64,000 bases of DNA from Haliotis cracherodii (lineage: Eukaryota), in NCBI RefSeq assembly GCF_022045235.1, contig NW_027266267.1, positions 35,154,001 through 35,218,000 on the forward strand, written 5' to 3'. The notes beneath the pieces are model-generated. The model saw only the letters and a list, made by a program, of their open reading frames with translations, made no database searches and was not told where the DNA came from. Below, piece after piece: positions 4,096 through 51,600 of this stretch. Numbering within the stretch: position 1 is the first letter of the stretch; each line of letters begins with the position of its first letter. Both the position numbers and the translations under genes were made by a program.

Positions 4096-6289
4096 GTTTC
4101 TCCTTAATCAAACTTCCTCTCGTCAATATTCGGTTGAAATAAGTTACTACACATGAAATACACACAGAGCAACATGCAGCATTCTTCGTGAACAAACATT
4201 AGAGCTCCGCTATCTGTGAAATACATCCTTATGAAGGAGGAAATATTCCTACAATCAGCATTCGCTCACCTGCAGCTGTTTGTCCTGGTTTAGGTACTGA
4301 TAAATACATACCTTTAGATATTTTACACAAAGTACAACTTGCATTACTGCCAGTTTGCGGTCGCGCACAGTTGTCGGTACATATACCAAAGGGATAATGT
4401 TTCATTGTCTATCCTGGCGTATTTGGATCATGTAATCACTTTGTTGGTGGGGGGTTTACATTCTTCGTGTGATGTTAATGAGAACATACTAGACACTGTC
4501 AATTCATGAATACGTTTTAAGCTGTTTCTCTTTGCAGCATATCCGGGCCACGTAGATGTTAATTTTCATTTTGCCGAGGCTTTGCATAAGCGTTGTTATA
4601 AGAATAGAGGTTTTTTTTCTGAGCACCTGAAAGATAAACAATCATTTGGGATGTTCACATTGAAATAACCACGTGTGTGATAATCATATTCCATGCTAGC
4701 ATGCAAGCATCCAAATTGTCTGCCCCGGATTAAACATGCACGTCCAAACTGTGAATCACGACCTTAAAGTCAAGGATGTCTCCATGCATATGCACTGTAA
4801 GATGTATTATTAGTTTTTTTTAAATTCAATACTTTTCTTTTTATTAAAATTTATTAACCACAGTTATATATGCATATTTCCTTATCTAGAATAGTCATAC
4901 AATATCATTGTCCCCGTCGTAAGTGCGCTGAGTCATTTTGCACCAATTTTCCAGGTCTGCACCTTGTGTTGTAATCAAAAATGCATCTTACCAAAAAACT
5001 GTCCCATTGTCGATACTCGCTTACACATTCTGGTGGGTAGGAGTTACATAAACACAATATAAATATAACTTTAATGTGTGTTTTTTTTCAGGTCGTAGTA
5101 TATATCATGTTGTGGTGAAAGTAGTAATCTAGTTGTATTATACTGCAATGCTTGATGGAACATGCATGAGACACGAATTAATTGAAAACAAAGCCAGTAA
5201 TCTGTCAGCCTATCAAGCCTTTATTTCTACAGGAAGAGGACAATAAACATTGAATAGATACTCAAATAAAGCCGAACGAGTACCTCACACAATGTAATAG
5301 ATAATGTGAATTCAGGACATTCAACTATTGAGTTTCAGTCATTCACGCTTTCCTGTTAGAGATTCAGTGAACATGATATTTACACAACATATTACGTGGA
5401 TACCCTTTGCGTAACTAATGATTCCAAAGGGACAAGTAACAGATATATTTGAAGTGACACAAACACGAAATATACATTACAGATGCTAGTAATCCCCAGC
5501 TAAAATAATCACATATGCATGCTATATACAGGTCCTAACAACTGTTCAGATGATAAGATGAAAATAGGTTATGACACAATTTAAAACGTCAACACCATGG
5601 AACTAGTGTCGAATATCTGCCGAAAGGCAAAATAATGATGACAACCGCATGAATGCATCACTGAAAATCAGTTGTGACACCAGGTTTTACGAAAAAGGGT
5701 AAGCTTGTCTTGTCTTTTACAGCGGTACCTCCTATGCACAATTTTCATAAAACATGGTGTTTGTTTTTGCAACACCCAGCAATAATCCTGCTATACGACG
5801 ATACATCAGTAGTGACAAAATGTTTTTATTATACCAATGGCGTAATGTCATTATGATAATAGCTTAACATATTGGCCGAAAATGACACAAACACTGGAGG
5901 ATGTATATATATTTGCTGGTCTGACAACTTGAAACAGTGGTTTTCACACTACTATGTTCTCATTGGTGGATTTTCGTAGTCAGCATTCTCGGTCACAGTG
6001 TTGTAGTAAACATCGTTGGCATTTATGCTGGACTGTCTGGAGGCTTCCTTCTTGATCTCGGAGTAACAGGGATCTGTATTGCCATCGTGAGCCAAAGTGT
6101 CGTATTGAGGTGCGTCAACCTCAGCCAGTGATACATCTGTACAAACACAGATACAAATAAGGAGTGTTGTAGACACGAGTCATGTTTTACGTTACACACT
6201 GACACAAGATGCTTCACAACAGTTTATTTGTGATACAAAGCTCCACAGCATTAATATTGTTTATTATTTGTATGGAGATGATCTGTCAT

Positions 6290-7015
6290 AACCAGCTGTC
6301 AGCCAATGTTTGGCTGCCCTACTTGAGGTCAGTATGTTAATTGAGGATGAAATCTCCCGAATCAAAGAATCAGTAACATCAACTTTTGACTTGGCTGTAA
6401 AACCTGAAGACATATCCATTCCTCTTTCTTATTGTCACAGAAAATATTTGAGACAAATGGAATTATTACCATGTAGATTCTCCAAAAAATAAATGATTTG
6501 CTTGACTTTGTTACAAACTCTGAAAAGAACCAACTTCAATTATGTCAAAACATTTGACTTTTCAACTTTGTACACCACAATACCATATGGGAAACTTGAA
6601 GGAAAACTTAATGCCTTGAATCATGGGGCTTGTTTAAAAACATGGTGACCATATATAGCGTTACTTATTTATCATCAGATCTAGAGGTTCAGGTCAGTTT
6701 GTCAAACATGGAAGCAAATGCCCAAAAAAGGGATGACTTCAACTTTGCAGTGCTCAACGTTCACTTTGTTTAGAACAGTGTTCCATCAGCAAGAGCCCTT
6801 GGTGTTTTTCATTTCACAACTTTTGAGGTATTGTGCTCTTTCTACCAAGATCTCAAAGAGCGTCACACAACTCTTGCTCCGAAACTGATTGATCAGGATC
6901 ACAGCATTTAAGGCACCAGTAAAGCTTTCACAAAGATTGATTGTAGACATGTGGTGGAGATGTGGAATCACTATATGTCGACAGTATTTTGACACATGTA
7001 TTAAAATCCATTCTT
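6290..7015 (+). mobile_element. Penelope-like RT fragment, internally deleted
   Basis: VKTFDFSTLYTTIP and RDDFNF segments; paralog of 17600-18855. Confidence 0.6.
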
Positions 7016-7133
7016 TAAATCAGTAACGGCAAACGGTACAAGTACGACCTACAAATCACATGATATTAAATCAGTTTCTGAATACAAATAATTGTAAAAT
7101 ATTGCTACCCTCCTTACAAGAGGTGTAGATTAC

Positions 7134-7241
7134 CTTGCTTGACTTTTCAATTTCGTCTCCTGTAAACACCTACACAGATAACGATTACGATGAGGATCAT
7201 GATGCCAAACCCTGTCCCAGCAGCGATGTACATGGTGTCAT
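7134..7241 (-). other. Duplicate TM exon (TM2) of copy B with early stop
   Basis: DDTMYIAAGTGFGIMILIVIVICVGVYRRRN*; AAG acceptor and GT donor retained. Confidence 0.7.
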
Positions 7242-10200
7242 CTTGAACATGAAACTTATACTGGGCTACTGGGTGTCTGGTCCATGCTTAATGGTGTTGA
7301 TCTTTTAAAACTATAATGTGAAAAGCGGATTATCTAGAAATATAGCCTGAATGCTTTATAACGCTGTCATGAATGTTCTGGTTTGATCTTCAAATCACTT
7401 AATATCAAATTAGAATCTGATACCAAATAGTTCAAATTTGTTCTGACCGTCATCAAAGAGGTGTAGTTTACCTTGCTTGACGTTTCCCTTTCTTCTCGTC
7501 CTTACAACACATACACAGATAACGATTATAATGAGGATGAAGATTCCTCCACCTGTCCCAGCAGCAATATCTTGAAGAGAATAGAAATACTGGACTAGTA
7601 AGTATACTGTCCTTGAACTTGGCACATGGATAAGTCTATATAAGTACATTTATGTGTTCGTATATATAAGCAATGAGTATAAGTGCTGAATGATATAAGA
7701 CAACATAACTTTTACATAAAGAGAGTCCATGCTGTATACACGCAGATAGAGTTGGTGACCTCGATCTATGAGGAGCAATGATACGAAGTTACTAGTATTT
7801 ACTTGTTTCACAACATAATTTAGTTTGATTGGGACGTTTTTGAAAGGGAAATGTGATATATATAAAGCACAGTAAAGTTCTAGTTCCCAGGCACAATATA
7901 GTAAAATTAGAATAAGTGGAGTAAGATTAAACACAGTTTGAATTGGCTAACTCTTTCAACTCGTACCACGTATGAGTCTCATGAGGCCATAACTGAATAA
8001 CGAACATGAAGTTATGTAACGCGTAACCGGAGAGATACGAGTAACCTTTTATGCAGGACTGTACACAACTAGGTTTTAGGTATACAAGGCAGAGATGGAG
8101 ATTATATATGAGTACTACATTCTTAAGTTTCTGAATATCAGTAACCTTTAATTGCCGTCATGGCCAAATGACATTAGAATTCAGCTGATCCAACTTTTCT
8201 TCGGGTATCCGATGATGTTAATAAGCACGTCGTTAGTAATGGGTGTATGGTCCATGTTTTTTTCCATGCCGCTTATCGTGGCGTGACGACAATATTGCTT
8301 ACTCTGTTATTTATAATAGTTCATTCGTTTACAATGACAAAGCTAAGTCAATATAAGAAGTTTAATAAAATGCCGCACCGAAATAATGGGGTTGATCTAT
8401 CACAATAGCATGTGAAAACCGTAATGTCTAGAGAGCTATCACAGTACTGTCTGTTCAAATGCCACTCAGTGCACATTGTTGGTATGTCTTGGATCCTGGG
8501 TCAGTATATGGTTTTGTTATATATTCATGAATGTTTCTAAATATCCTATATATCGTACCCAAAGGTTAGTATGACGACTAGTACACAACTACCTTGATTA
8601 TCGTTACTCGGGGCAGTAGATATCTTGATAGTTGTAAGATTTGCCAATGTTGTCAGCTGTGAACTTGTTTTATAAGTAGCCCCGTTAAAGCCTGACGACA
8701 TAAATAATATATACAAATAATTATGAAATTGGCTCGCTCACCACAGAGGACATAAAATAACACACTTCTATGGTTTGAATAATCCGATAGACGAGCCATA
8801 TCATGTTCAATTAATGTTTAGTGTGTCTAGGAACGCACGTTCGAACATTTTACATACAAAGTTACTAAATGTGTGGATAGCTGATACATATATTAGTTCA
8901 AATAAATGCATTGAATTATTAAAACAGATAAAATGGCTTTCGCCGGCATAAGTGTAAATGACACAACTTGTATCCATACAATGTTTCTCTAAATATATAA
9001 TACATCGTTAGTTTAACTGATACAAATCTACCATGAGTATTGCTGTCTGTGGGGATCGTTGTTGCTGAATCAGTCAGTGATGTAGTTGACTTATCAGTAG
9101 TCCCTGGAATGGCTGCATACATAAATAATATATATTATTTGTGACATTTATTAGCTTAATATCGATACACATTAACAAACGATTTCATATTGACCGCCTC
9201 CATGGTCAACTGGTTAGAGCGTTTGTCCAGAGATGGGAAGATCCGTGGGTTTGACACCAGGTCAGGTCATACGAAAAGTCGTAGTTTTCACCCTGTCCGG
9301 TATCAAGGGGAAAACACGTGGTGTTGTCTGTTTGGAGTAAGTCTACTGTGTCTGAATGAGGCATGCATGTTAAACTGCGCCACGGTATCTGAGTGGGCAG
9401 ACACTATGAAACGGGAATTGTATACGGAATAATACAAGCAACCACACACAAACACACACGCACTCAATCACTACACACATACACACACAAACACGTGCAT
9501 GTACGTCGCTATATAAGGCGAGTAATCATGGACGCGACGTAACAAATTTCACCTCTCTTCCGATAGTGTTAACACCGGTTGTATCTCTGGGTGACCGTTT
9601 TATAAAGTGCCTCATCTGTAGATGTCGTGTTCATAGTTCTTGAACATTTACGTATGGTTCTCAGGTATATATTTCATGAATCAGTTACATCTGCATTCGT
9701 TCTGGCACAATATGTCATAGCATGATGTATGGGATCAGAAAGGACACGTTGATGTAAATAAAGGAGTATGAGCGCATGACAAAAAGATCATACCCAACGT
9801 AATGTTGTTACTGACTCTATTGCGTTCATCCTCACACCGCCACACAGTCCCAGCTTTGATGTATTGAGTTGTAGTTAGTGTCATGTTGTGCTGGTGGTCA
9901 CCACAGCTTACACCGACATCATTTGATGTGAATAGGTCGTAACGATATGCAGAAGTATCGTCTGTACCATTGGGTGGGTTTCTGGTACAACCAGTAACTG
10001 CAAACACTGACGTGAGAACTCGCACCTCATCTAAATACCAATATGTGAAGGAACTGGTTTTTTTCCAGGTCGGAGTATATATCATGTTGTGGTGAAAGTA
10101 GTAATCTAGTTGTATTATACTGCAATGCTTAATGGAACATGCACGAGACACGAATTAATTGAAAACAAAGCCAGTAATCTGTCAGCCTATCAAGCCTTTA

Positions 10201-10984
10201 TTTTTACAGGAAGAGGACAATAAACATTGAATAGAAACTCCAATAAATCCGAACCAGTACGTCACACAAGCATTTTCCAGAAAAGTGACCAGTATAATAG
10301 ATAATGTGAATTCAGGACATTCAATCATTGACTCTTCAGTCATTCACGCTTTCCTGTTAGAGATTCAGTGAACATGATATTTACACGACATACATATTAC
10401 GTGGATTCCGTTTGCGTAACTAATGATTCCAAAGGGACAAGTTACAGACATATTTGAAGTGACACAAACACGAAACATACAATACAGATGCTAGTAATCC
10501 CCAGCTAAAATAATCATATATGTATGCTATATACAGGTCCTAACAACTGTTCAGATGTTTAGGTGGAAATAGGTAATGAGACAATATAAAACGTCAACAC
10601 CATGGAACTAGTGTCGAATATCTGCCGAAAGGCAAAATAATTATGACAACCGGATGAGTGCATTACTGAAAATCAGTTGTGACACCAGGTTTTACGAAAA
10701 AGGGTAAGCATGTCTTGCCTGTTCCAGCAGTACCTCCTATGCACAATTTTCTTTAAAAAATATGTGTTTGTTTTTTGCAACACCCAGCAATAATTCTGCT
10801 ATATGAGAATACATCAGTATTGACAAAATGTTTTTTCGCAAAGATTTGCCTTCATACCTATTATACCAATTTGCGTAATGTCATTATGATAATAGCTTAA
10901 CATACTGGCCGAAAATGCCACAAACACTGGAGGATGTATATGTTTTTGCTGGTCTGACAACTTGAAACAGTGGTTTTCACACTA

Positions 10985-13900
10985 CTATGTTCTCATTGGT
11001 GGATTTTCGTAGTCAGCATTCTCGGTCACAGTGTTGTAGTAAACATCGTTTGCATTTATGCTGGACTGTCTGGAGGCTTCCTTCTTGATCTCGGAGTAAC
11101 AGGGATCTGTACTGCCATCGTTAGCCAAAGTGTCGTATTGAGGTGCGTCAACCTCAGCCAGTGATACATCTGTACAAACACAGATATAAATAAGGAGTGT
11201 TGTAGACACGAGTCATGTTTTACGTTACACACTGACACAAGATGCTTCACAACAGTTTATTTGTGATACAAAGCTCCTCAGCATTAATATTGTTTATTAT
11301 TTGTATGGAGATGATCTGTCATAACCAACTGTCAGCCAATGATTGGCTGCCCTACTTGAGGTCAGTATGTTAATTGAGGATGAAATCTCTCGCATCAAAG
11401 AATCAGTAACATCAACTTTTGACTTGGCTGTAAAACCTGAAGACATATCCATTTCTCTTTCTTATTTTCACAGAAAATATTTGAGACAAATAGAATTATT
11501 ACCATGTAGATTCTCCAAAAAATAAATGATTTGCTTGACTTTGTTAGAAACTCTGAAAAGAACCAACTTCAATTATGTCAAAACATTTGACTTTTCAACT
11601 TTGTACACCACAATACCATATGGGAAACTTGAAGGAAAACTTAATGCCTTGAATCATGGGGCTTGTTTAAAAACATGGTGACCATATATAGCGTTACTTA
11701 TTTATCATCAGAGGTTCAGGTCAATTTGTCAAACATGGAAGCAAATGCCCAAAATAGGGATGACTTCAACTTTGCAGTGCTCAACGTTCACTTTGTGTGG
11801 AGCAGTGTTCTATCAGCAAGAGCCCTTGGTGTCTTCATTTCACAATTTTTGAGGTATTGTGCTCTTTCTACCAAGATCTCAAAGAGCGTCACACAACTCT
11901 TGCTCCGAAGCTGATTGATCAGGATCACAGCATTTAAGGCACCAGTAAAGCTTTCACAAAGATTGATTGTAGACATGTGGTGGAGATGTGGAATCACTAT
12001 ATGTTGACAGTATTTTGACACATGTATTAAAATCCATTCTTTAAATCAGTAACGGTAAACGGTACAAGTACAACCTACAAATCACATGATATTAAATCAG
12101 TTTCTGAATACAAATAATTGTAAAATATTGCTACCCTCCTTACAAGAGATGTAGATTACCTTGCTTGACTTTTCAATTTCGTCTCCTCTAAACACCTAAA
12201 CTGGTGACCCCCGCCGTGATATTGCTGGAATATTGCTAAAAGCGGCGTAAAACCATACTCACTCACTCACTCACTCACTAAACACCTAAACAGATAACGA
12301 TTACGATGAGGATCATGATGCCAAACCCTGTCCCAGCAGCGATGTACATGGTGTCATCTTGAACATGAAACTTATACTGGGCTAGTGGGTGTCTGGTCCA
12401 TGCTTAATGGTGTTGATCTTTTAAAACTATAATGTGAAAAGCGGATTATCTAGAAATATAGCCTGAATGCTTTATAACGCTGTCATGAATGTTCTGGTTT
12501 GATCTTCAAATCACTTAATATCAAATTAGAATCTGATACCAAATAGTTCAAATTTGTTCTGACCGTCATCAAAGAGGTGTAGTTTACCTTGCTTGACGTT
12601 TCCCTTTCTTCTCGTCCTTACAACACATACACAGATAACGATTATAATGAGGATGAAGATTCCTCCACCTGTCCCAGCAGCAATATCTTGAAGAGAATAG
12701 AAATACTGGACTAGTAAGTATACTGTCCTTGAACTTGGCACATGGATAAGTCTATATAAGTACATTTATGTGTTCGTATATATAAGCAATGAGTATAAGT
12801 GCTGAATGATATAAGACAACATAACTTTTACATAAAGAGAGTCCATGCTGTATACACGCAGATAGAGTTGGTGACCTCGATCTATGAGGAGCAATGATAC
12901 GAAGTTACTAGTATTTACTTGTTTCACAACATAATTTAGTTTGATTGGGACGTTTTTGAAAGGGAAATGTGATATATATAAAGCACAGTAAAGTTCTAGT
13001 TCCCAGGCACAATATAGTAAAATTAGAATAAGTGGAGTAAGATTAAACACAGTTTGAATTGGCTAACGCTTTCAACTCGTACCACGTATGAGTCTCATGA
13101 GGCCATAACTGAATAACGAACATGAAGTTATGTAACGCGTAACCTGATAGATACGAGTAACCTTTTATGCAGGACTGTACAAAACTAGGTTTTAGGCATA
13201 CAAGGCAGAGATGGAGATTATATATGAGTACTACATTCTTAAGTTTCTGAATATCAGTAACCTTTAATTGCCAGCATGGCCAAATAACATTAGAATTCAG
13301 CTGATCCAACTTTTCTTCGGGTATCCGATGATGTTAATAAGCACGTCGTTAGTAATGGGTGTATGGTCCATGTTTTTTTCCGTGCCGCTTATCGTGGCGT
13401 GACGACAATATTGCTTACTCTGTTATTTATAATAGTTCATTCGTTTACAATGACAAAGCTAAGTCAATATAAGAAGTTTAATAAAATGCCGCACCGAAAT
13501 AATGGGGTTGATCTATCACAATAGCATGTGAAAACCGTAATGTCTAGAGAGCTATCACAGTACTGTCTGTTCAAATGCCACTCAGTGCACATTGTTGGTA
13601 TGTCTTGGATCCTGGGTCAGTATATGGTTTTGTTATATATTCATGAATGTTTCTAAATATCCTATATATCGTACCCAAAGGTTAGTATGACGACTAGTAC
13701 ACAACTACCTTGATTATCGTTACTCGGGGCGGTAGATATCTTGATAGTTGTAAGATTTGCCAATGTTGTCAGCTGTGAACTTGTTTTATAAGTAGCCCCG
13801 TTAAAGCCTGACGACATAAATAATATATACAAATAATTATGAAATTGGCTCGCTCACCACAGAGGACATAAAATAACACACTTCTATAGTTTGAATAATC

Positions 13901-15525
13901 CGATAGACGAGCCATATCATGTTCAATTAATGTTTAGTGTGTTTAGAAACGCACGTTCGAACATTTTACATACAAAGTTACTAAATGTGTGGATAGCTGA
14001 TTCATATATTAGGTCAAATAAATGCATTGAATTATTAAAACAGATAAAATGGCTTTCGCCGGCATTAGTGTAAATGACACAACTTGTATCCATACAATGT
14101 TTCTCTAAATATATAACATATCGTTAGTTTAACTGATACAAATCTACCATGAGTATTGCTGTCTGTGGGGATTGTTGTTGCTGAATCAGTCAGTGATGTA
14201 GTTGACTTATCAGTAGTCCCTGGAATGGCTGCATACATAAATAATATATATTATTTGTGACATTTATTAGCTTAATATTGATACACATTAACAAACGATT
14301 TTATATTGACCGCCTCCATGGTCAACTGGTTAGAGCGTTTGTCCAGAGATGGGAAGATCCGTGGGTTTGACACCAGGTCAGGTCATACGAAAAGTCGAAG
14401 TTTTCACCCTGTCCGGTATCAAGGGGAAAACACGTGGTGTTGTCTGTTGGGAGTAAGTCTACTGTGTCTGAATGAGGCATGCATGTTAAACTGCGCCACG
14501 GTATCTGAGTGGGCAGACTCTATGAAACGGGAATTGTATACGGAATAATACAAGCAACCACACACAAACACACACGCACTCAATCACTACACACATACAC
14601 ACACAAACACGTGCATGTACGTCGCTATATAAGGCGAGTAATCATGGACGCGACGTAACAAATTTCACCTCTCTTCCGATAGTGTTAACACCGGTTGTAT
14701 CTCTGGGTGACCGTTTTATAAAGTGCCTCATCTGTAGATGTCGTGTTCATAGTTCTTGAACATTTACGTATGGTTCTCAGGTATATATTTCATGAATCAG
14801 TTACATCTGCATTCGTTCTGGCACAATATGTCATAGCATGATGTATGGGATCAGAAAGGACACGTTGATGTAAATAAAGGAGTATGAGCGCATGACAAAA
14901 AGATCATACCCAACGTAATGTTGTTACTGACTCTATAGCGTTCATCCTCACACCGCCACACAGTCCCAGCTTTGATGTATTGAGTTGTAGTTAGTGTCAT
15001 GTTGTGCTGGTGGTCACCACAGCTTACACCGACATCATTTGATGTGAATAGGTCGTAACGATATGCAGAAGTATCGTCTGTACTATTGGGTGGGTTTCTG
15101 GTACAACCAGTAACTGCAAACACTGACGTGAGAACTCGCACCTCATCTAAATACCAATATGTGAAGGAACTGTTGGTGGTGGTGTTGATGGAGCTGCAGA
15201 CTAAGGTGACATTGTCGCCTGACTGGAACTGAGTGAGTTGTAGAGGGAGACCACCTGAAACATTCCAAGGTACAACCAGCATGAGAAGAAATCAGAACAC
15301 AAACATGCAGTGACATTCTCTGTCGTCCTCCATGTACTTACAATACCCAAATAGCTTTAACAAGCAAACATGAAACAGATTGGGTGCTACAGTCACTATT
15401 GAATTACACCTACGACATGTCATTGGCTCTACCCTTCGCGTGATTAGAAATTCAAACTTACTGTTATTTGTGTACGCAATCCATCCTATACACAGCAGAG
15501 TAATCAGGCGAATCCTGGTGCCCAT
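10985..15525 (-). CDS. Ig-like single-pass receptor, copy C, complete (~290 aa; tail type I)
   Basis: Leader 15525-15462, Ig 15254-14910, stalk1 14228-14148, stalk2 13807-13709, TM 12686-12588 (AAG acceptor), tail 11169-10985. Total 873 nt, all introns phase 1, no internal stop seen. Confidence 0.85.
11325..12045 (+). mobile_element. Penelope-like RT fragment, internally deleted
   Basis: Near-identical to 6290-7015. Confidence 0.6.
12160..12357 (-). other. Duplicate TM exon (TM2) of copy C, SINE-interrupted
   Basis: Paralog of 7134-7241 plus a 90-bp insertion; reads ..ICLGV*. Confidence 0.65.
12201..12277 (+). mobile_element. 5'-truncated SINE family 1 with TSD
   Basis: (CACT)n tail; TSD CTAAACACCTAAA at 12188-12200 and 12278-12290. 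Confidence 0.85.
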
Positions 15526-17267: not shown

Positions 17268-20200
17268 CTAAGTTATCATTTGTGGATTTTCGTAGTCAGC
17301 ATTCTCGGGCACAGTGTTGTAGTAAACATCGTTTGCATTTATGCTGGACTGTCTGGGGGCTTCCTTCTTGATCTCGGAGTAACAGTGATCTGTATTGCCA
17401 TTGTGAGCCAAAGTGTCGTATTGAGGTGCATCAATAACAGCCAGTGATACGTCTGTACAAACACAGATACAAATAAGGAGTGTTGTAGACACGAGTCATG
17501 TTTTACGTTACACACTGACACAAGATGCTTCACAACTGTTTATGATACAAAGCTCCTCAGCATTAATATTGTTTATTATTTGCATTGAGATGATCTGTCA
17601 GAACCAGCTGTCATCCAATGTTTGGATGCCCTAATTGAAAAGTTTGAGGTTGTTCCTACTGACAAGGCCTCAAATAACATAACCATTTTGTGTAAGCATC
17701 ACTACATGAAATGTTTGATCAAAGAATTTGGCATAAGTGACATGTCAAATAATGCCACATATGAGGTCAGTATGTTAACTGAGGATGAAATCTGCTGAAT
17801 CAATGAATCAGTAACATCAACTTTTGACTTGGCTGCACAACCTGAAGACATATCCGTTCCTCTTTTGTATTGGATTCCAAAGCTCCATAAAAATCAGTAC
17901 AGAGAGAGATATATTGCTGGGTTCAGCAAATATACCACAAAATCCCTGTCTCTACGATTAACCATAATCATTCATACAACCAAGAAAGAACTTTCTTATG
18001 TTCACAGAAAATATTTGAGACAAATGGAATTATTACAATGTGGATTCTCAGAAAAATTAATGATATGCTTGTCGTTTTTACCATCTCTGAAAGGAACCAA
18101 GTCCAATTCTGTCAAAACATTTGATTTTTCAACTTTGTACACCACAATACCATATGAGAAACTTGAGGGAAAACTTCATTGCCTTGATCCATGGGGCTTG
18201 TTTAAAAAAATGGTGACCAGATACAGCGTTACTTATCTATCATCAGAGGTTCAGGTCAGTTTGTCAAACATGGAAGCGAGACGTGAAGAATTCCGGGGTA
18301 GAATAGGTCTTCAGCAACCCATGCTTGCCGTAAAAGGTGACTATGCTTGTCGTAAAAGACGACTAACGGGATCGGGTGGTCAGGCTCGCCGACTTGGTTG
18401 ATGCATGTCATCGATCCCAATTGCGTGGATCGATGCTCATGATATAAATCACTGGATTGTCTGGTCCAGACTCGATTATTTTCAGACCGCCGTCATATAG
18501 CTGGAATTTTGCTGAGCACGACGTTAAACAACCAACCAACCAACCAACCAACCAAACATGGAAGCAAATGCCCAAAATAGGGATGACTTCAACTTTGCTG
18601 TGCTAAACGTTAACTTTGTGTGGAGCAGTGTTCCATCAGCAAGAGCCCTTGGTGTCTTCATTTCACAACTTTTGAGGTAAGTTGCTCTTTCTACCAAGAT
18701 CTCAAAGAGCGTCACACTGCTCTTGCTCCGAAGCTGATTGATCAGGGTCACATCATTTTAGGCACCAATAAAGCTTTCAAAAAGATTTGTGGTGGAGATG
18801 TGGAATCACTATATGTTGACAATATTATGACACATGTATTAAAATCCATTCTTTAAATCAGTAACGGCAAACGGTACAAGTACAACCTACAAATCAGATG
18901 ATATTAAATCAGTTTCTGATTATAAATAATTGAAAATATTGCTACCCTCCTTACAAGAGATGTAGATTACCTTCCTTGACTTTTCAATTTCGTCTGATCA
19001 CAACACCTACACAGATAACGATTACGATGAGGATCATGATGCCACCCCCTGTCCGAGCAGCGATGTACATGGTGTCATCTTGAACATAAAACGTATACTG
19101 GGCCACTGGGCGTCTGGCCCATGATCTTTGAAAACTATAATGTGAAAAGCTGATTATCTAGAAATATAGCCTGAATGCTTTATAAGCTGTCATGAATGAT
19201 CGGGTTTGATCTTCAAATCACTTAACATCAAATTCTAATCTGATACCAAATAATTCTAATTTGTTCTGACCGTCATCAAAGAGGTGTAGTTTACCTTGCG
19301 TGACGTTTCCCTTTCTTCTCGTCCTTACAACACATAAACAGATAACGATTATAATGAGGATGAAGATTCCTCCTCCTGTCCCAGCAGCGATATACGTGGT
19401 GTCATCTGGAAGAGAAAACAGATACTGGGCTAGTAAGTATACTGTCCGTGAGCTTGGCAGATGCATAAGTTTATATAAGTACATTTATGAGTTCGTATAT
19501 ATAAGCAATAAGTATATGTACTGAATAATCTAAGACAACATAAGTTTTACATGAAGAGAGTCCATGCTCTATACACGCAGATAAAGAAGGTGACCTCGGT
19601 CTTATGAGGAGCAATGATACGAAGTTACTAGTATTTACTTGATAATGTTTCACCATATAATTTAGTTTGATTGGGAAGTTTTCGAAGCACAGTAAAGATC
19701 TAGCCCCCAGGGGGGCGGTTGGGTAGCCTAGAGGTTAATGTGTTCGCTCGTCACGCCGAAGACCCGGGTTCGATTCCCGACATGGGTACAATGTGTGAAG
19801 CCCATTTCTGGTGTCCCCTACCGTGATATTGCTGGAATATTGCTAAAAGTGGCGTAAAACAATATACACTCACTCACTCTAGCTCTCAGGCACACAATAG
19901 TAAAATTGGAATAAGTGGAGTAAGATTAAACACAGTTGTAATTGGCTAGCGCTTTCAGCTCGTACAAAGATGAGTCTCATGAGGCCATAACTGAATACCG
20001 AACATAAAGTTGTGTAACGCGTAACCCAATAGATACGAGTAACCTTTAATGCAGAACCGTACAAAACTAGGTTTTAGGCATACTAAGCAGAGATGGAGTT
20101 TATATATGCCTACTACATTCTTAAGTTTCTGTATATCAGTAACCTTTAATTGCCATCATGGCCGACTCACACTTGAATTCAGCTGATCCAATTTTTCTTC

Positions 20201-22322
20201 GGTTACCCGATGACGTTAATAAGCGCGTTGTGAGTAATGGGTGTATGGTCCATGGCTTTTTTCCGTGCCACTTATCGTGACGTGACGACAATATTGCTTA
20301 CTCTGTTATTCATAATCGTTCATTCATTCACAATGACAAAGCTAAGTCAATATAAGAATTTCAATAAAATGCTGCACCGAAATAATGGGGTTGATCTGTC
20401 ACGATATCATGTGAAAACCGCAATGTCTAGAGAGCTATCACAGTACAATCTGTTCAAATGCACATTCAGTGCACATTGTTGGTATGTCTTGGACCCTGGG
20501 TCAGTATATGTTTTTGTTATATTTTCATGAATGTTTCTAATGTACACAACTACCTTGATTATCGTTGGGCTGGGCAGTAGTTATCTTGATAGTTATCAGA
20601 TTTGCCAACGTTGTCAGCTGTCTTATAAGTAGTCCCGTTAAAGCCTGACGACATAAAAAATATATACAAATAATTATGAAATTTGCTCGCTCACCACAGA
20701 GGACATAAAATAACACACTTCTGTAGTTTGAATATTCCGATAGACGAGCCACGTCATGTTCAATTAATGTTTAGTGTGTTTAGGAACGGACGTTCGAACA
20801 TTTTACACACAATGTTACTTACTAAAATGTGTGGATAGCTGATACATATATTAGGTCAATAACATACAGAAGATTATTAAAACAGATAAAATGGCTTTCG
20901 CCGGCATTAGTGTGATTTCACATAACTGGTATCAATACAACGTTTCTCTAAATGTATAACACATCGTTAGTTAAACTGATACAAATCTACCATGAGTACC
21001 GCTGTCTGTGGTGATCGTTGTTACTGAATCAGTCAGTGGTGAAGTTGACTTATCAGTAGTCCCTGGAATGACTGCATGGAAAAATAATACATATTATTTG
21101 TGACATTTACTCGCTCAATATCGATACACATGAATAAGCGATTTTATATTGACCACCCACCTCCATGGTCAACTGGTTAGAGCGTTTGTCCTGAGAGGGG
21201 AAGATCGGTGGGTTTGACACCAGGCCAGGACATACGAGAAGTCGTAGTTTTCACCCTGTCCGGTATCAAGGGAAAAACACGCGGTGTTGTCTGTTCGGAG
21301 TTGGTCTACTGTTTGTGAATGGGGCATGCATGTTAAACTGCACCAAGGTATCTGAGTGGGCAAACACTATGAAACGGGAATTGTATACGGAGTTATACAA
21401 GCAACCAGACAGAAACACACACGCACTCACTCACTACACACATACACACACAAACACGTGCATGTACGTCGCTATCTAAGTCGAGTAATCATGGACGCGA
21501 CGTAACAAATTTCACCTTACTTACGATAGTGTTAACACCGGATGTATCTCTGGGTGACCGTTTTATAAAGTGCCTCCTCTGTAGATGTCGTGTTCATAGT
21601 TCTTGAACATTTACATATGGTTCCCAGGTATATATTTCATGAATCAGCTACATCTGCATCCGTTCTGGCACAATGTGTCATAGTATGATGTATGGGATCA
21701 GAAAGGACACGTTGATGTAAACAAAGGAGTATGAGCGCATGACAAAAAGATCATACCTAGCATAAGGTTGTTACTGACTCTAATGCGTTGATCCTCACAC
21801 CGCCACACAGTGCCAGCTTGGGTGTATTGAGTTGTAGTTAGTGTCATGTTGTGCTGGTGGTCACCACAGCTTACACTGACATCATTTGATGTGAATAGGT
21901 CGTAACGATATGCAAGATTATTGGTTGTAGTATTGGGTGGGTTTCTGGTACAACCATAACCTGCAAACACTGACGTGAGAACTCGCTCCTCATCTAAATA
22001 CCAATGTGTGAAGGAGATGTTGGTAGTGGTGTTGATGGAACTGCAGACTAAGGTGATATCACCTCCTGACTGGAACTGAGTGAGTTGTAGAAGGAGACCA
22101 CCTGTAATATTCCAAAATACAACCACCATGAGAAGTAATCAGAACATAAGCATGCAGTGGCATTCTTTGTCGGACATAAAGTGCTAAAATCACTATTTAA
22201 TTACACCTATGACATCCCGATGGTTCAGCCCTTCGCATGATTAGAAATTCAAACCTACTGTTATGTGTGTATGCAAACCATCCTATACACAGCAGTGTAA
22301 TCAGGCGAATCCCAATGTCCAT
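17268..22322 (-). CDS. Ig-like receptor copy D (tail type I; stalk2 exon frameshifted, gene in frame if that exon is skipped)
   Basis: Leader 22322-22259 (MDIGIRLITLLCIGWFAYTHN), Ig 22101-21757, stalk1 21071-20991, stalk2 20644-20554 (91 nt versus 99), TM 19405-19295, tail 17452-17268. Confidence 0.72.
17600..18855 (+). mobile_element. Penelope-like RT fragment with nested SINE
   Basis: VVPTDKASNN, LYWIPKLHK, RYIAG, FDFSTLYTTIP, RDDFNF and GVFISQLLR motifs with stops. Confidence 0.7.
18278..18552 (+). mobile_element. SINE family 2 with (ACCA)n tail and TSD
   Basis: TSD CAAACATGGAAGC at 18265-18277 and 18553-18565; empty sites in the B and C paralogs. Related copies at ~34504-34705, ~39378-39561, ~49892-50094 and ~55577-55760 on the minus strand. 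Confidence 0.85.
18971..19078 (-). other. Duplicate TM exon (TM2) of copy D with early stop
   Basis: DDTMYIAARTGGGIMILIVIVICVGVVIRRN*. Confidence 0.7.
19710..19878 (+). mobile_element. SINE family 1 (tRNA-derived, (CACT)n tail)
   Basis: A and B boxes plus tail; same insertion at 35676-35840 and 52066-52234; absent in copies B and C. Confidence 0.85.
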
Positions 22323-22969: not shown

Positions 22970-23278
22970 GTTCTTGAATATTATTATTGTTTTTGTTCTT
23001 TCCCTGTATTCAAAAGACTCAGTGTTAATTTTGCAGTGGCACATGCACAACCTTACTCAGAACATGATTTGTGAGATCAAAAGGACACGTTGATATTAAT
23101 GAAAGGAATATGGGCGCATGACAAAAAGATCAAAACCTGAAGTAAGGTTGTTACTGACTCTCCTGCGTTCATTCCCACACCGCCACACAGTCCCAACATG
23201 TGAGTACTGAGTTGTAGCTTGTGTAATGTTGTGTTGGAGGTCACCACAGCTTACACAGACATCCGTTGATGTGTATAG

Positions 23279-23444
23279 TGAGTGAGTGAGTATGGTTTTG
23301 CGCCGTGTTAGAGCAATATTCCAGCAATATCACGGCGGGAGACACCAGAAATGGGCTTCACATATTGTACCCATGTTGGGAATCGAACCCGGGTCTTCGG
23401 CGTGAGGAGCGAACGCTTTAACCACTAGGCTACCCGACCGCCCT
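23279..23444 (-). mobile_element. SINE family 1 inside Ig exon
   Basis: 14-bp TSD GTTGATGTGTATAG. Confidence 0.9.
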
Positions 23445-23568
23445 GTTGATGTGTATAGGTCGTAACTATATGCATAACTATCGTTTGTGCTGTTGGGTGG
23501 GTTCTTTGCACAGATATTCCCTGCAGACACTGACGTGAGAAGTCGGAAGTCATCCAGGTACCAATGTG

Positions 23569-23694
23569 AGTGAGTGAGTATGGTTTTACGCCGCTTTTAG
23601 CAATATTCCAGCAATATCACGGCGGGGGACACCAGAAAATGGGCTTCAACGTGACGAGCGAACGCTTTAACCACTAGGCTACCCGACCGCCCCT
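23569..23694 (-). mobile_element. SINE family 1, internally deleted, inside Ig exon
   Basis: 11-bp TSD GTACCAATGTG. Confidence 0.88.
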
Positions 23695-25551
23695 GTACCA
23701 ATGTGTAAACTTTATGTTAATAGTGGTTTTAGTAGGGCTGCAGACTAAGATGACATCATCGCCTGACTGGAACTGAGTGAGTTCAAGAGGGAGACCACCT
23801 GCAACATTCTAGGTACAACCAGCACATGCATGAAGTTACTTTGTATTGAGAGGTAGCCTCAGCCTACACTGTCATCCTTTGATGTGTATCAGCTGTAATG
23901 TTGGGTGATTGTTTGGTACAGACAGTACCTGCACACACTGACGTGATAACTAGCTCCTCATCTTTATCAATATGTAAATTACATGTCGATAGTGTTATTG
24001 GTCGCGCTGCAGACTAAGGTGACATTATTGCTTGACTGGAACTAAGTGCGTTCTAGAGGGAGAACACCTGTAACATTCAAGCATGAGAATATATCGGACA
24101 AACAGGTAGTGATTTTCATACTTTGTCACTCTTCAACACCTGTCATATTGGAATTCCGGAGACGTGCACAAAACAAAAGTGGTACAATACAATTACACGG
24201 CATACACCATATCTGTATGTATATAGATAATTCAATACTTAGTATACTGACATAGGGAAACCTACGTGTGTCCACAATCCGTCCTATCAACAACAGAGTA
24301 GTCAGGTAAACAAAACAGCCCATGCTGCCAACACATCGAATCCACTCTCGTGAACGTCCCTTGAAGGTTGCAAATATACTGTTAAACTAGTCACTGCACA
24401 CCATGTCCTACACTGAGCCGCATGCAGAGAGGTCTGTGCAGTCACCAACCACTCTCATGGAACTGTTATTTCCTGGTTTAGATAGAGTCGGAATCAAGAT
24501 TTCTTTATGAATATGAAAAGGTTTTCGCTGCTTTTATTTAGATAATGATGAATTCCTACCCGTTAGTGTGGAAAAATGGAACGAGTCGCTATTGAATTCA
24601 ACTGACCTGAGACAGTACATTTACCATTTAAAATACATTTGGTTTGCCAAAAAATAATGACTTGAAATATACTTTCTCAGAAAAAAACTATGTTCAGATA
24701 GTCGCGCGTTTGAGTCTTTTTGGTGGTATTGTTACTTGTTAATTTAAGTTTGACTGTCGTATCGTGACACAGTGGCAGCTTTCACAAAGCAGCCTCGGGT
24801 AACCTGCCGATGTATGATATGTGTGCGAGGTAGGCTACAAAAGGTTCGTTATCACAACCTATTAAAACTGCCCTAGCCAAATACAACTTAGCAGATTCTT
24901 ACAAAAGTTTGCACATTGTCTTTTCGATTCATACCTCAATGAACCGAAAAAATACACAGTCAATGCTTGTAATTAAATTCAATAACAAAAACATGTTTTA
25001 TCTACAATAGTTTAACCAAAAACAGTTGTATATATCAAAGCGGATAAAAATGACGAGATTGATAAACATTCCGGGTGTAGGAATACATACTGTGGCGTGA
25101 CATGAAGCTGGTGACTGTTTAATTACGCACATAACTTTCCTACGCTTCAGAGTCAGTAGCCAATCAACTGAGAGTATGATACAAACAAAGTTCATAGGAC
25201 CTGTCAATCAAGGCAAGAGGCGAGGAGAACTGCAACAGTCAGACTGTAACGAACAGGAACAATTATACTCGGGAGAAGGTGGCTGTTTCAAATAACATGG
25301 TCAGTTACCGCCACTTTTAAACATTAGTTCCCTGAGAAGGGAAGACACTTTTAATAAAAATGCTGATTAGAAATGAAACCAGAAGACATGAAAGTTGTGG
25401 AACCGAGGCGAGCGGCAAAAAACAGGCGAGTGAGCCTGCACGTTTGCTGTTTCATTCCTTCTCGGCCTTCGGTCCCAAAGAGTTGTTTGGACAGTGACTA
25501 TGCATGCATTTCGCTTAATTTCCAGTGCATGACGATACACGTGAGCAGAAA

Positions 25552-33267: not shown

Positions 33268-36200
33268 TTAGATTTCACTATACTCATTGTCGGCTTCGGA
33301 CCAAGTACTATCTGCAACAACCAATGTGTTTATGTCATCCGCACATATTCCATCCAAACATCAACGTTGTCTTTCTGTCATAAATCCCTCAAGGGATGTT
33401 ACATTTTGTAGGTAAGTTGTTTTACGCCTCAGTTAAATATTCCTGATGACATCCTTTAAATAGTCGAGTCTGGAGTAGACAAACCGACGGTTACTGTTAT
33501 AGTAAATGTTCCACGTCGTTGGGCAAAGATGACATACTATGTACCAAGTTCGTTTGTTTGCTGTTTGCTGTTTAACCGCGAATATTACAGCTTTTTGATG
33601 GGGTCTGTAAACCATTGATTATGGACCAGACAACACAGTGACTGATATCATGAGCATCTAAAACATTCGGATCCAATGACATGACATGCACAAGTCGCCG
33701 ATTCTAACCACTCGATGCCGTTAGTTGACAAATCAACTAAGTCACCGAGCCAGACCATCCGACCCATTCAGAGCCTCTTACGACAGACGTGGATAAGGAG
33801 ACGCATTCTAACCCGTTGTCCGGTCAATCGCACTTCCGTGTATACTTACTCGTTCCGTTCTTTGTTTTTTCATGGACATGTCCGGTACGGCATACAGATC
33901 ACCAATGTTCACAGCACCGCCTACAGCTGACTGGTGTTTGGGTGTCGTGTCCGGGACGCCGTACTTGTCACCATCATTGACAGCTCCACGTACAGCTAGC
34001 TGGTGTTTGGGTGTCTTGTCTGGTACGGCATACAGATCACCAACGTCGACAGCGCCGCCAAGAGCAGGTATGTGTTCGGGTGTATTGTCTGGTACGGCAG
34101 TTGAATATAGAATTATGGTGTTTATATTTCAACAAGTAACAACATATTATTCTCCCTAGATATTCTTTCTGAAATTAGTAAGCTTAATTTAGAAGGCAAC
34201 ACTCAAACTATAATCACAATTTGAATACAATAGTCAGATATGTGATGAAGTGAAGAACACCATAACAGAAAAGACTTACAAGTGAAGAGCACCTTGTTGT
34301 CAACAGGTTCAACTTGGTATCTGAAAAGAAATATCATATTGTTTTTAAGTTATTGCTCGTTTCAACACTGGGAAAAATTTGAAGGAAAAAGTTTCAACAT
34401 TTTCATGAATAATATTATTTTTTTCACATTTGAGGCGTTACCATTGATCTGTCAACTTGTGTCATCGTATCCCAAAAGGTGATGGGCGTTACCCGCAGTA
34501 TCATTGGTTGGTTGGTGTGTTGTTTAACGCCACACTAAGAAATATATGACTAAGCTATATGACGGCGGTCTGTAAATAATTCAGTATGGACCAGACAAGC
34601 CAGTGCTGAATATCATCAGCATCGATCCGATCAATTTGGATCGATGACATGCATCAACCAAGCGTGACGATCCGATCCCGCTTGTCGCCTCTTACGACAA
34701 GCATGGCCGCCTTTACAAAGCATCAATATCTAATGTGTCTATTTATAGTCCATTGTCCTCCAACAACTTAGAATCAACGATCACGCTTATTAATACAATA
34801 CAAATTTGAAAATATTTTAGAACTACCTGTGGATACAAAAATGCGCGTTTTTTTAATCAGTTACATTATAAAAGAACAATTGTGAAGAAAATATTTGAAC
34901 GACGAATTAACCATGATCAGGGTTGATGATGCGACCGTTGTTGTGTGTGTTAATTATATTAATGAATACTTTTAAATGAAGGCGACAAGGTCACCCATCT
35001 CTATCGAGAGTATTATGATGAAAACAATTAATTAACGTATTATGTACTACATAAATGCGGTAAAACCCTTTTTTATATTTATAAGATATCTCCGTCAAGT
35101 CGATTGCTTGATTACTTTTTATGAAACTGACATTTAATCTTCACATCTGAAATGCTTTATAACGCTGTCATGAATGTTCAAGTTTGATCTTCAAATCACT
35201 TAACATCAAATTAGAATCTGATATCAAATAAGTCTTATGTATTCTGACGGTCATCAAAGAGGTGTAGTTTACCTTCTTGTGACGTTTCCCTTTCTTCTCA
35301 TCCTTACAACACATACACAGATAACGATTATAATGAGGATGACGATTCCTCCTCCTGTCCCAGCAGCGATATCTTGAAGAGAATAGAAATACTGGGCTAG
35401 TAAGTATATTGTCCTTGATCTTGGCACATGGATAAGCCTATATAAGTACATTTATGAGTTTGTATATGTAAGCAATGAGTATAAGTACTGAATTATCTAA
35501 GACAAGATAACTTTTACGTGAAGAGAGTCCATGCTGTATACACGCAGATAGAGATGGTGACGTCCGTCTATGAGGAGCAATGATACGAAGTTACTAGTAT
35601 TTAATTGATATTGTTTCACCATACAATTTAGTTTGATTGGGAAGTTTTCGAAGCACAGTAAAGATCTAGCTCCCAGGGGGGCGGTTGGGTAGCCTAGTGG
35701 CTAAAGTGTTCGCTCGTCACGCCGAAGACCCGGGTTCGATTCCCGACATGGGTACAATGTGTGAAGCCAATTCTGGTGTTCCCCGCCGTGATATTGCTGG
35801 AATATTGCTAAAAGTGGCGTAAAACCATATTCACTCACTCTCAGGCACACTATAGTAAAATTGGAATAAGTGAAGTAAGATTAAACACAGTTGTAATTGG
35901 CTAGCGCTTTCAGCTCGTACAAAGTATGAGGCTCATGAGGCCATAACTGAATAACGAACATGAAGTTATGTAACGCGTAACTCGATAGATACGAGTAACC
36001 TTTTATGCAGAACTGTACAAAACTAGGCATACTAAGCAGAGATGGAGATTATATATGAGTACTACATTTTTAAGTTTCTGAATATCAGTAACCTTTAATT
36101 GCCACCATGGCCAACTAACATTAGAATTCAGCTGATCCAACATTTCTTCGGTTACCCGATGACGTTAATAAGCACGTAATAAGCAGTAATGGGTGTATGG

Positions 36201-48660: not shown

Positions 48661-51600
48661 TTAGACTTCACTATACTCATTGTCGGCTTCGGACCAAGTA
48701 CTATCTGCAACAACCAATGCGTTTATGTCATCCACACATATTTCATCCAAATATCAACGTTGTCTTTCTGTCATAAATCCCTCAAGGGATGTTACATTTT
48801 GTAGGTAAGTTGTTTTACGCCTCAGTTAAATATTCCTGATGACATCCTTTAAATAGTCGAGTCTGGAGTAGACAAACCGACGGTTACTGTTATGGTAAAT
48901 GTTCCACATCGTTGGGCAAAGATGACACACTATGTACCAAGTTTGTTTGTTTGCTGTTTACGGTTTAACCGCGAATATTACAGCTTTTTGATGGGGTCTG
49001 TAAATCATCGATTATGGACCAGACAACACAGTGACTGATATCATGAGCATCTAAAACATTCGGATCCAATGACATGCATCGACCAAGTCACCGATTCTAA
49101 CCACCCGATGCCGTTAGTTGACTAATCAACCACGTCACCGAGCCAGACCAACCGACCCATTTAGAGCCTCTTACGACAAACATGGATAAGGAGACATATT
49201 CTAACTCCTAGTCCGGTCAATCGCACTTCCGTGTATACTTACATGTTCCGTTCTTTGTTTTTTCATGGACATGTCCGGTACGGCATACAGATCACCAATG
49301 TTCACAGCACTGCCTACAGCTGACTGGTGTTTGGGTGTCGTGCCCGGGACGCCGTACTTGTCACCATCATTGACAGCACAACGTACAGCTAGCTTGTGTT
49401 TGGGTGTCTTGTCTGGTACGGCATACAGATCACCAACGTCGACAGCGCCGCCAAGAGCAGGTATGTGTTCGGGTGTATTGTCTGGTACGGCAGTTGAATA
49501 TAGAATTATGGTGTTCATATTTCAACAAGTCACACCATATTATTCTCCCTAGATATTCTTCCTGAAATTATTAAGCTTAATTTAGAAGGCAACACTCAAA
49601 CTATAATCACAATACAATAGTCAGATATGTGATGAAGTGAAGAACACCACAACAGAAAAGACTTACAAGTGAAGAGCACCTTGTTGTCAACAGGTTCAAC
49701 TTGGTATCTGAAAAGAAATATCATATTGTTTTTAAGTTATTGCTCGTTTCAAACCTGGGAAAAATTTGCAGGAATAAGATTCAACATTTTCATGAATGAT
49801 ATTATTTTTTTTTCACATTTGAGGCGTTACCATTGATCTGTCAACTTGTGTCATCGTATCCCAAAAGGTGATGGGCGTTACCCACATTATCATTGGTTGG
49901 TTGGTGTGTTGTTTAACGCCACACTAAGCAATATATGACAAAGCTATATGACGGCGGTCTGTAAATAATTCAGTATGGACCAGACAAGCCAGTGCTGAAT
50001 ATCATCAGCATCGATCCGATCAATTGGGATCGATGATATGCACCAACCAAGCGTGACGATCCGATCCCGCTAGTCGCCTCTTACGACAAGCATGGCCGCC
50101 TTTACGCAGCATCAAGATCTAATGTGTCTATTTATAGTCCATTGTCCTCCAACAACATGCAACCAACGATCACGCTTATTAATACAATACAAATTTGAAA
50201 ATATTTTAGAACTACCTGCGGATACAAAAATGTGCGTTTTTAAAAAAAAAGAGTTGCATTATCATTATAAAAGAACAATTGTGAAGAAAATATTTGAACG
50301 ATGAACTACCCGTGATAAGGGTTGATGATGCGACCGTCGTTGTGTGTGTTAATTACATTAATGAATACATTTAAATGAAGGCGACAAGGTCACCCACATC
50401 TATGGAGAGTTTTGTGATGATAACAATTAATTAACGTATTATGTACTACATAAATGCGACAAAACCCTTTCCATATCTCCGCGAAAAACACAGTCGATTG
50501 TTCGATTCGGACTATATCATGAGCATGTGTTTATGAATCACTATTAAATAGTGATGATACCAGGTGTTCGCCCCATCAGCGACACCCGTCAAAAACACAT
50601 GCAAACACAAGTCAAATAATCACATGAAAAAAACCTACAAGTCTGAATAGGGACTGGAGCCTCAATGTTCCCAACGTGTCTACAGTGAACCTTTTTAAAG
50701 CTTTTCTGAGGCCAGGAATGTTTCCTCGAATGTTGTAACCTTGATCAAACAGCTTCTTAGCAAGTAATGTATTACGCTCTTTTTGAAATATTGATTGAAA
50801 GTGCATGCTCGAATGTTCTTCAAAAGTTGTGAAATGTAGACAGCAATAGCTGTACCTACTGGAATACTGCTTGACATAAAGGGAAAGTTGACTGTTGGAA
50901 AGTTGACGTCATCCCACTTGTCATGCAGTCTAGTGCTTTATCCCTCTGAATCTTTGTGCATAGTTCTACATAAGAAACAGACGAAGCGGTTTCATTTGTC
51001 TTCTTTATTTCTAGTTCAGGTGGGTAAATCAGTCTATTTGGTGGTTATTGAACGATTTCCGATACCTATGACAACAATATACCTATGACGACTCATACGG
51101 GCATTGAGGTGAGGTGAGGTGAGGTGAGGTGAGGTGAGGTGAGGTGAGGTGAGGTGAGGTGAAATCGGGTTTAACGTCCAAGATTTTTGCACTTACATAG
51201 CCACGCTCTACCACTAGACCACGGAGGCGGTCCCGGGCATTGAGCGATGAAATTCAAAGGTGGTATACAGTGGAAATACTTGACACTCTACTCACGTAAC
51301 ATAAAGTGGGTTTTCTGAGACCTCTGCACCATTGTCTGCATCGCTGATAGCTGTAAACAGACATGACGACCAATACCTTTGTTCATTTATCATATTTCTG
51401 TTATTATTACTCTTGTGATATGTGCATGTATATTCAAATAAGCTATTTTATCACAAGGAGGGGTAAGGAAATGATTTGACGGATGAGAGCTGTATGTTAT
51501 TAATTTTTATGAAACTGGTAGTTAATCTGTACATCTGAAATGTTTTATAACGCTGTCATGAATGTTCCAGTTTGATCTTCAAATCACTTAACATCAAATT

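Follow-up and report, generated by a model that had tools for sequence, protein, structure and literature searches.

Tyrosine motifs in the single-exon cytoplasmic tail of a clustered V-set immunoglobulin receptor gene of the abalone Haliotis cracherodii

Does a single exon of the abalone Haliotis cracherodii encode a cytoplasmic tail for both activating and inhibitory signalling? In a preliminary description made from the DNA letters, an ITAM-like pair, an ITIM-consensus match and a YxN motif had been recognised in this exon, and a dual activating and inhibitory scaffold had been proposed. The receptor that carries the tail was characterised here, and its motifs were compared among homologous tails. 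The window is the whole stretch of 64,000 nucleotides that was analysed, and coordinates refer to it.

Structure of gene C and its tail exon

The exon is the last of six coding exons of a gene designated C. The internal GT-AG junctions of this gene are canonical and all in phase 1, and the joined exons yield 290 codons with one terminal stop. A signal peptide, a V-set Ig domain, a Ser/Thr stalk, a transmembrane helix and the tail follow each other in one open frame. The features of gene C are:

15462..15525, minus strand: signal-peptide exon with the start codon (exon-join reading frame)
14910..15254, minus strand: V-set-like Ig domain exon (structure model, Foldseek and profile matches)
14148..14228, minus strand: first Ser/Thr-rich stalk exon (exon-join reading frame)
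13709..13807, minus strand: second Ser/Thr-rich stalk exon (exon-join reading frame)
12588..12686, minus strand: transmembrane exon (helix without a charged residue)
10985..11169, minus strand: final coding exon, encoding the 61 residues of tail type I and the stop codon (acceptor in phase 1; RefSeq model P0011)
11087..11137, minus strand: ITAM-like pair YDTL-x9-YSEI (YDTL 11137-11126, YSEI 11098-11087; tail alignment)
11027..11044, minus strand: VYYNTV, with a Grb2-type YxN on the first Tyr and an overlapping ITIM-consensus match on the second Tyr
11000..11014, minus strand: DYENP, second Grb2-type YxN site (YENP invariant in 11/11 tails)

The signal peptide was judged from the sequence. The Ig exon was modelled as a V-type Ig fold (pLDDT 80.4), with VHH (nanobody) and T-cell receptor V domains as the best Foldseek matches (TM about 0.6), and V domains were also best in a PDB profile search with this exon. 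The B-strand Cys (C19), the C-strand Trp (W33) and the F-strand Cys (C101) were invariant in all 23 Ig exons compared. The Pfam V-set family matched the sister member P0018 but not gene C, and the ESM Atlas neighbours, used as leads only, were generic V-set domains (0.89-0.92). With its V-type fold and its layout in one frame, the product of gene C is predicted to be a V-set IgSF type I receptor. Since its helix lacks a charged residue, it would signal via its own tail rather than via an adaptor chain. In the intron before tail I, a decayed second copy of the transmembrane exon was observed in gene C (window about 12281-12343) as well as in the neighbouring genes B (about 7135-7236) and D (about 18972-19073).

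All motifs named in the preliminary description, i.e., YDTL-x9-YSEI, VYYNTV and DYENP, were found in the minus-strand frame 11169-10985, and YYNT was recognised as a second YxN site that its motif list had lacked. The tail exon has a canonical AG acceptor in phase 1 and forms an in-frame junction with the transmembrane exon; the same join is present in the RefSeq model XP_071095266.1 (P0011, Haliotis cracherodii), which is a prediction only. When the tail was shuffled 200,000 times, a loose ITAM arose in 0.6%, an ITIM in 9.8% and at least one YxN in 41% of the shuffles. All three occurred together in 0.06%, and thus the combination is above chance. No family was found in a Pfam scan of tail type I.

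The tail exon is also covered by contigs of three runs guessed to be RNA (one study, about 93-96% identical to the window), one of which ends at the tail acceptor with 16 unaligned upstream letters and gives only a hint of splicing. A divergent tail I relative was seen in run X1 (contig record 2), with 75 bases in place of 153 (window 10929-11083); a DNA search of the whole genome G000 found no tail copy of this X1 type.

Conservation of the tail and its ITAM-like pair

Gene C is one of nine such receptor genes arranged head to tail over about 85 kb, of which five have tail type I and the other four have type II, in which YAVP is repeated. The other tail exons of named genes in the window are:

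5952..6136, minus strand: tail I exon copy in gene B (98% DNA identity with C)
17268..17452, minus strand: tail I exon copy in gene D (92% DNA identity with C)
33811..34100, minus strand: gene E, exon for the alternative tail type II with repeated YAVP
49204..49493, minus strand: gene F, exon for the alternative tail type II with repeated YAVP

Two further tail I copies, G and H, lie just right of the window and are 87-90% identical to C. Searches of the whole genome for the tail returned five type I copies, the same five being found with DNA, and one sister copy on contig C18, counts that derive from single-sequence searches and may miss more divergent copies in G000.

Among B, C and D, only gene C is intact. 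Gene B is truncated at its 5' end: it has no signal-peptide exon, and its Ig exon lacks the beginning. In gene D, the second stalk exon (20554-20644) has an 8-base deletion that shifts the reading frame, and translation stops before the helix unless the exon is skipped; D is a pseudogene, encodes a secreted form or skips the symmetric stalk exon. As a separate observation, a tandem duplication of about 5.1 kb (window 5080-15172; 7163-10056 versus 12279-15172, 99% identical) created the truncated gene B, with an assembly artefact not excluded.

The five Tyr and their +3 residues had been described as invariant in B, C and D. This was correct but no better than chance: these tails are 92-98% identical, 10 of 61 columns vary, and the probability that the 10 sites remain unchanged is 0.14. 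Addition of G, H and a model from H. rufescens lowered P to 0.007, and with H. rubra P0013, whose tail is 63% identical, 37 of 61 columns were variable while the 10 sites were unchanged in all seven type I tails (P=2e-5); these hypergeometric P values are optimistic, since equal substitution rates are assumed and Tyr is slow in general.

A more distant comparison was provided by the weak genome-wide match on C18 (E=0.8), which is the tail exon of a two-Ig paralog from a sister subfamily. It follows a homologous Ig and transmembrane exon with a phase-1 junction as in gene C, and its alignment score with tail C exceeded those of 20,000 out of 20,000 shuffles. The sister-subfamily tails are about 36% identical to type I and retain the five Tyr, the spacer of nine residues, YYNT and YENP. 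When 11 tails were aligned, 13 of 61 columns were invariant, namely the five Tyr, T14, D22, N46, T47, E55, N56, P57 and T61, the last of which sits at the ragged end of the alignment. Related proteins were found in H. rubra, H. rufescens and H. asinina; at the level of predicted sequences, the tail tyrosines are conserved across four abalone species. Outside Haliotis, a word-based search with 7,991 scored candidates revealed no homolog with this tail. Compared with the older paralogs G and H, the tail dN/dS was 0.21-0.42, and between C and the damaged D it was 1.12 on 13 changes. For 15 motif codons, a Fisher test chosen post hoc gave P=0.001, a result that was set aside because the test is partly circular.

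These data bear on the explanation that the motifs arose by chance and are without a function in signalling, the copies that carry them being products of recent duplication and partly decaying. The damage in B and D, the unremarkable invariance among the three copies and the tail dN/dS between C and D would fit such decay, but conservation reaches H. rubra and, in four species, the sister subfamily, the dN/dS against G and H is low, and gene C is intact. This explanation is thus largely refuted and very improbable.

Regarding the ITAM-like pair, both Tyr, Thr14 and Asp22 were invariant in 11/11 tails, with a spacer of nine residues in all. The ITAM claim stood in its loose form, since two YxxL/I half-sites (6-9 or 6-12 spacer) were present in 7/7 type I tails and the spacer was kept in homologs. 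The classical form was absent: the spacer of 9 exceeds YxxL/I-x6-8-YxxL/I, and the position -3 of the first Tyr is Ala in gene C, with Asp at -4. The acidic ITAM residue is written as D/ExxY in the text drawn on here (PMC6994640). An invariant Asp stands at -3 of the second ITAM-like Tyr. The +3 residues of the pair vary across subfamilies (L/M, I/L); the first half-site of the sister subfamily is YSTM, with Met instead of Leu/Ile and unchanged spacing, and a third subfamily (P0017) has YxxL-x9-YxxL. In a survey of 43 family proteins, 36 of them with a called transmembrane helix, 12 ITAM-like pairs were found, all 12 with a spacer of 9, although these matches fall in three subfamilies and are not independent. 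P0033 (a fish protein) and P0036 (apparently unrelated) had been left out of this survey. The oyster receptor CgIgR, with the 8-spacer ITAM YTEL-x8-YEKL, is reported to recruit CgSyk and to promote ERK phosphorylation and phagocytosis (PMC6994640). Since CgIgR recruits Syk with a spacer of 8 and ITAMs of the Hydractinia Alr proteins are defined with a spacer of 6-9, a spacer of nine residues poses no difficulty.

Endocytic signals and PI3K-type sites likewise conform to YxxL/I/M. The tail might be a phosphotyrosine scaffold other than a Syk/Shark ITAM, with YDTL and YSEI acting as sorting signals (YxxPhi) or as sites for PI3K, SHP2 or other SH2 proteins, and with mainly Grb2 output, possibly in adhesion, growth or neural signalling instead of immunity. 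The spacer is indeed non-classical, and the strictly invariant columns concentrate in YYNT and YENP, while the +3 residues of the ITAM-like pair vary. On the other hand, the spacing between the two Tyr is fixed in 12/12 pairs, whereas the distance from the pair to YYNT varies (19 versus 26 residues), which fits tandem-SH2 geometry better than independent sorting signals. A scaffold of this non-Syk type is regarded as unlikely.

The ITIM match and the Grb2-type YxN sites

The ITIM consensus (I/V/L/S)xYxx(L/V), which had been claimed for VYYNTV, was present in 7/7 type I tails, but the retention of V43 and V48 in these tails was only borderline (P about 0.05), and the motif alone arises in about 10% of shuffles. 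In the sister subfamily, the consensus failed in all six tails, with Ala at -2 and A, L, V, G, V and A at +3, while YYNT was unchanged. Moreover, YYN recurs in four more family proteins without ITIM flanks, and YYNT and YENP, both of which follow the pYxN consensus, were invariant in 11/11 aligned tails. Since YYNT is unchanged where the ITIM flanks fail, the deep constraint falls on YYN as a Grb2-type pYxN site, and the ITIM match is probably an incidental overlap on this Grb2 site. Conservation in related species and in more distant homologs, proposed in the preliminary description as the check on its motifs, was thus found for the ITAM-like pair and the YxN sites but not for the ITIM consensus.

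The consensus of the Grb2 SH2 domain is pYxN (PMC4647266, PMC2425477), and Shc pYYND and LAT DpYENL are among its known ligands (PMC2425477, Table 1). The assignment of Grb2-type motifs was upheld, with both sites matching the consensus and being kept in distant homologs as predicted ligands. The ITIM match of gene C is single and has Asn at pY+1. For SHP1, Ala or a medium non-polar residue at pY+1 was favoured and polar residues failed, with Asn not among the residues named in the part of the source drawn on here; PECAM1, with the polar Thr at pY+1, is said there to prefer SHP2 (PMC8631942). Seven other family proteins have VYAxV/LYAxI tails with Ala at pY+1 and miss the strict -2 rule of the ITIM. 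These members are better candidates for a separate inhibitory arm.

According to the dual scaffold, the type I tail would activate and then damp itself, with pY44 bound by Grb2 and pY45 (VxYxxV) bound by SHP2. The retention of VYYNTV in all type I tails, that of H. rubra included, and a synonymous change in the codon for V48 are consistent with this model, as are the presence of SHP2 in the genome, the SHP type that PECAM1 with its polar pY+1 prefers (PMC8631942), and the use of both Shark and Corkscrew by Draper, though via separate isoforms (PMC8092387). The losses in the sister tails with YYNT retained, the borderline retention within type I, the chance frequency and the single site with Asn at pY+1, in view of the failure of polar residues with SHP1 (PMC8631942), argue against it. 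Thus, the ITAM-like/YxN half of the scaffold proposed initially was supported and its inhibitory half was weakened; as a whole, it is judged improbable, somewhat more so than the non-Syk scaffold.

Receptor cluster, candidate partners and known systems

Within the cluster, genes of the two tail types are intermixed, and tail type is not grouped on the Ig tree either, with four changes compared with a mean of 3.5 after shuffling, on a tree with only 2 of 11 branches well supported. H. cracherodii gene A has tail II and the H. rufescens model P0003, which is possibly mis-joined, has tail I; their Ig domains are 92% identical. Ig dN/dS was 0.9-1.7 among the full-length genes A, C, D and E and 0.26-0.9 in other full-length pairs, all on small counts. 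More distant Ig paralogs are located elsewhere on C4 and on C18 (36 matches). These patterns fit a birth-and-death receptor cluster with tail exchange, with positive selection or paired function not proven. Tandem expansion, damaged copies, interspersed tails and Ig dN/dS near or above 1 (A-E, small counts) are typical of immune receptor clusters, which also speaks against the non-Syk scaffold.

Several further observations were made in the cluster. Tail type II (window 33271-34100 and 48664-49493, and gene A left of the window) consists of repeated DLYAVP units and ends in a YSTW-x6-YSEI pair, an ITAM-like relic with Trp at +3; the model of gene A contains NPLY, an NPxY motif, in this tail. 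A Pfam match of tail II to gerPA was below the cut-off and was disregarded, as were weak Pfam matches to IL18BP and TMEM154. In the RefSeq model P0002 (XP_071095268.1), the ectodomain is taken from gene E (exons at about 36.5-38.4 kb), whereas the transmembrane segment and the tail come from gene D (exons at 17.3-19.4 kb); this is probably an annotation chimera, with read-through splicing as the alternative. Degenerate Ig exon fragments with stops were found upstream of D, E and F (window 23143-24061, 38764-39160 and 54961-55381).

A genome search for SH2 domains yielded 47 matches. Syk is represented by tandem SH2 exons, with SYK as the best PDB match of the N-SH2 exon (E=5e-15), a Shark-type locus has the order SH2-ankyrin-SH2-kinase, and SHP2 is encoded as well. 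Three tandem Grb2-like genes with SH3-SH2-SH3 order are located at G000:C12:36.80-36.91 Mb (L102-L107), one of which matches Grb2 (E=2e-22); invertebrates usually have just one Grb2/Drk gene. Against the PDB alone, the half SH2 exons L069 and L097 gave no decisive match, and they were resolved through neighbouring exons. At G000:C34:58.35-58.52 Mb, at least five clustered SH2 half exons were observed, which we take to be Src-like and which suggest an expanded Src-family kinase array. With Syk, Shark, SHP2 and Grb2-type genes present, candidate partners of the tail exist, which makes binding possible but does not demonstrate it.

On balance, and with slightly better than even confidence, the tail of gene C is read as an activating module made up of an ITAM-like pair and two Grb2 sites, and not as a dual on/off scaffold. 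In this activating module, ligand binding would cluster the receptor and a Src-family kinase would phosphorylate the tail. Syk or Shark would dock on pY12 and pY25 through its tandem SH2 domains, and Grb2-family adaptors would bind pY44-Y-N and pY54-E-N, coupling the tail to Ras/ERK-type output. An ITAM and Grb2 docking sites of the Shc/LAT type would then be united on one chain, whereas T cells have ITAM and LAT on separate proteins. The spacer beyond the classical 6-8, the missing acidic residue at -3 before the first Tyr, the YSTM half-site of the sister subfamily and the retention of V43/V48 in type I tails at P about 0.05 count against the activating module. In addition, amphioxus Syk is reported to suppress NF-kB (PMC13344425), so that Syk binding need not activate in invertebrates. 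The family protein models used here are RefSeq predictions. By analogy and from the birth-and-death pattern, an immune role in haemocyte recognition or phagocytosis may be inferred. A more elaborate version, in which the type I tail of an expanding, lineage-specific family of V-set immune receptors would fuse an ITAM and a LAT/Shc-like double Grb2 platform in one exon and, in this subfamily, add a pY44-Grb2/pY45-SHP2 switch in overlapping frames, with tails shuffled as in vertebrate paired receptors and the triplicated Grb2 as reader, is considered a long shot.

Receptors of this kind are already known from Alr, FcoR, CgIgR and Draper, and the abalone family is a lineage-specific addition. CgIgR, too, is a type I receptor of a mollusc, with Ig domains and an ITAM in its own cytoplasmic tail, and its half-site YTEL also occurs in the abalone C18 sister tail; it differs by having five Ig domains instead of one or two and a spacer of 8 instead of 9, and neither Grb2-type sites nor a tandem cluster are mentioned in the part of the CgIgR account used here (PMC6994640). 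No oyster protein was among the named matches of the abalone family searches. Hydractinia Alr shares clustered IgSF genes, divergent V-set domains, variable tails, ITAMs (6-9 spacer) together with ITIMs, and the presence of Syk, Shark and SHP homologs, but it is cnidarian, has several Ig domains and an Fn3-like fold, and is genetically linked to allorecognition (bioRxiv 2022.03.04.482883). Botryllus FcoR comprises clustered IgSF receptors with mixed tyrosine motifs, and its core-2 motif [A/D]VYxxV matches the DVYAxV tails of other abalone family members; in contrast, FcoR has hemITAMs and ITIMs without a full two-Tyr ITAM and is paired with non-signalling partners (PMC12582321). Drosophila Draper and mouse MEGF10 are also single-chain receptors with a Src-written ITAM read by Shark or Syk, but with an EGF/EMI ectodomain, and the ITIM of Draper is on a separate splice isoform (PMC8092387). 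pYxN sites are shared with the ITT-like motif of DNAM-1 (PMC4647266) and with LAT and Shc (PMC2425477), with YYN resembling Shc pYYND and DYEN resembling LAT DpYENL; unlike in these proteins, the abalone YxN sites share a chain with an ITAM-like pair.

No published description of this abalone receptor family was found in the open-access literature, abalone were unmentioned in the accessible part of a 2025 review of invertebrate IgSF proteins (PMC11999971), and the named family members are annotated solely as uncharacterised or with low-complexity labels. LAT is reported to be absent in ascidians (PMC12582321), and with the abalone family one could ask whether, in animals that lack an adaptor of the LAT type, the receptor itself carries the Grb2 sites. 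Clustered Ig receptors with ITAM/ITIM tails have been described in one cnidarian and one tunicate, and oyster has one described ITAM receptor; to these, the abalone family adds a candidate activating receptor of gastropod haemocytes. The family also lends itself to testing whether a spacer of nine residues in the ITAM is preferred by the Syk or Shark of invertebrates. Abalone are both farmed and endangered, and candidate immune genes of this family could matter for work on their disease resistance.
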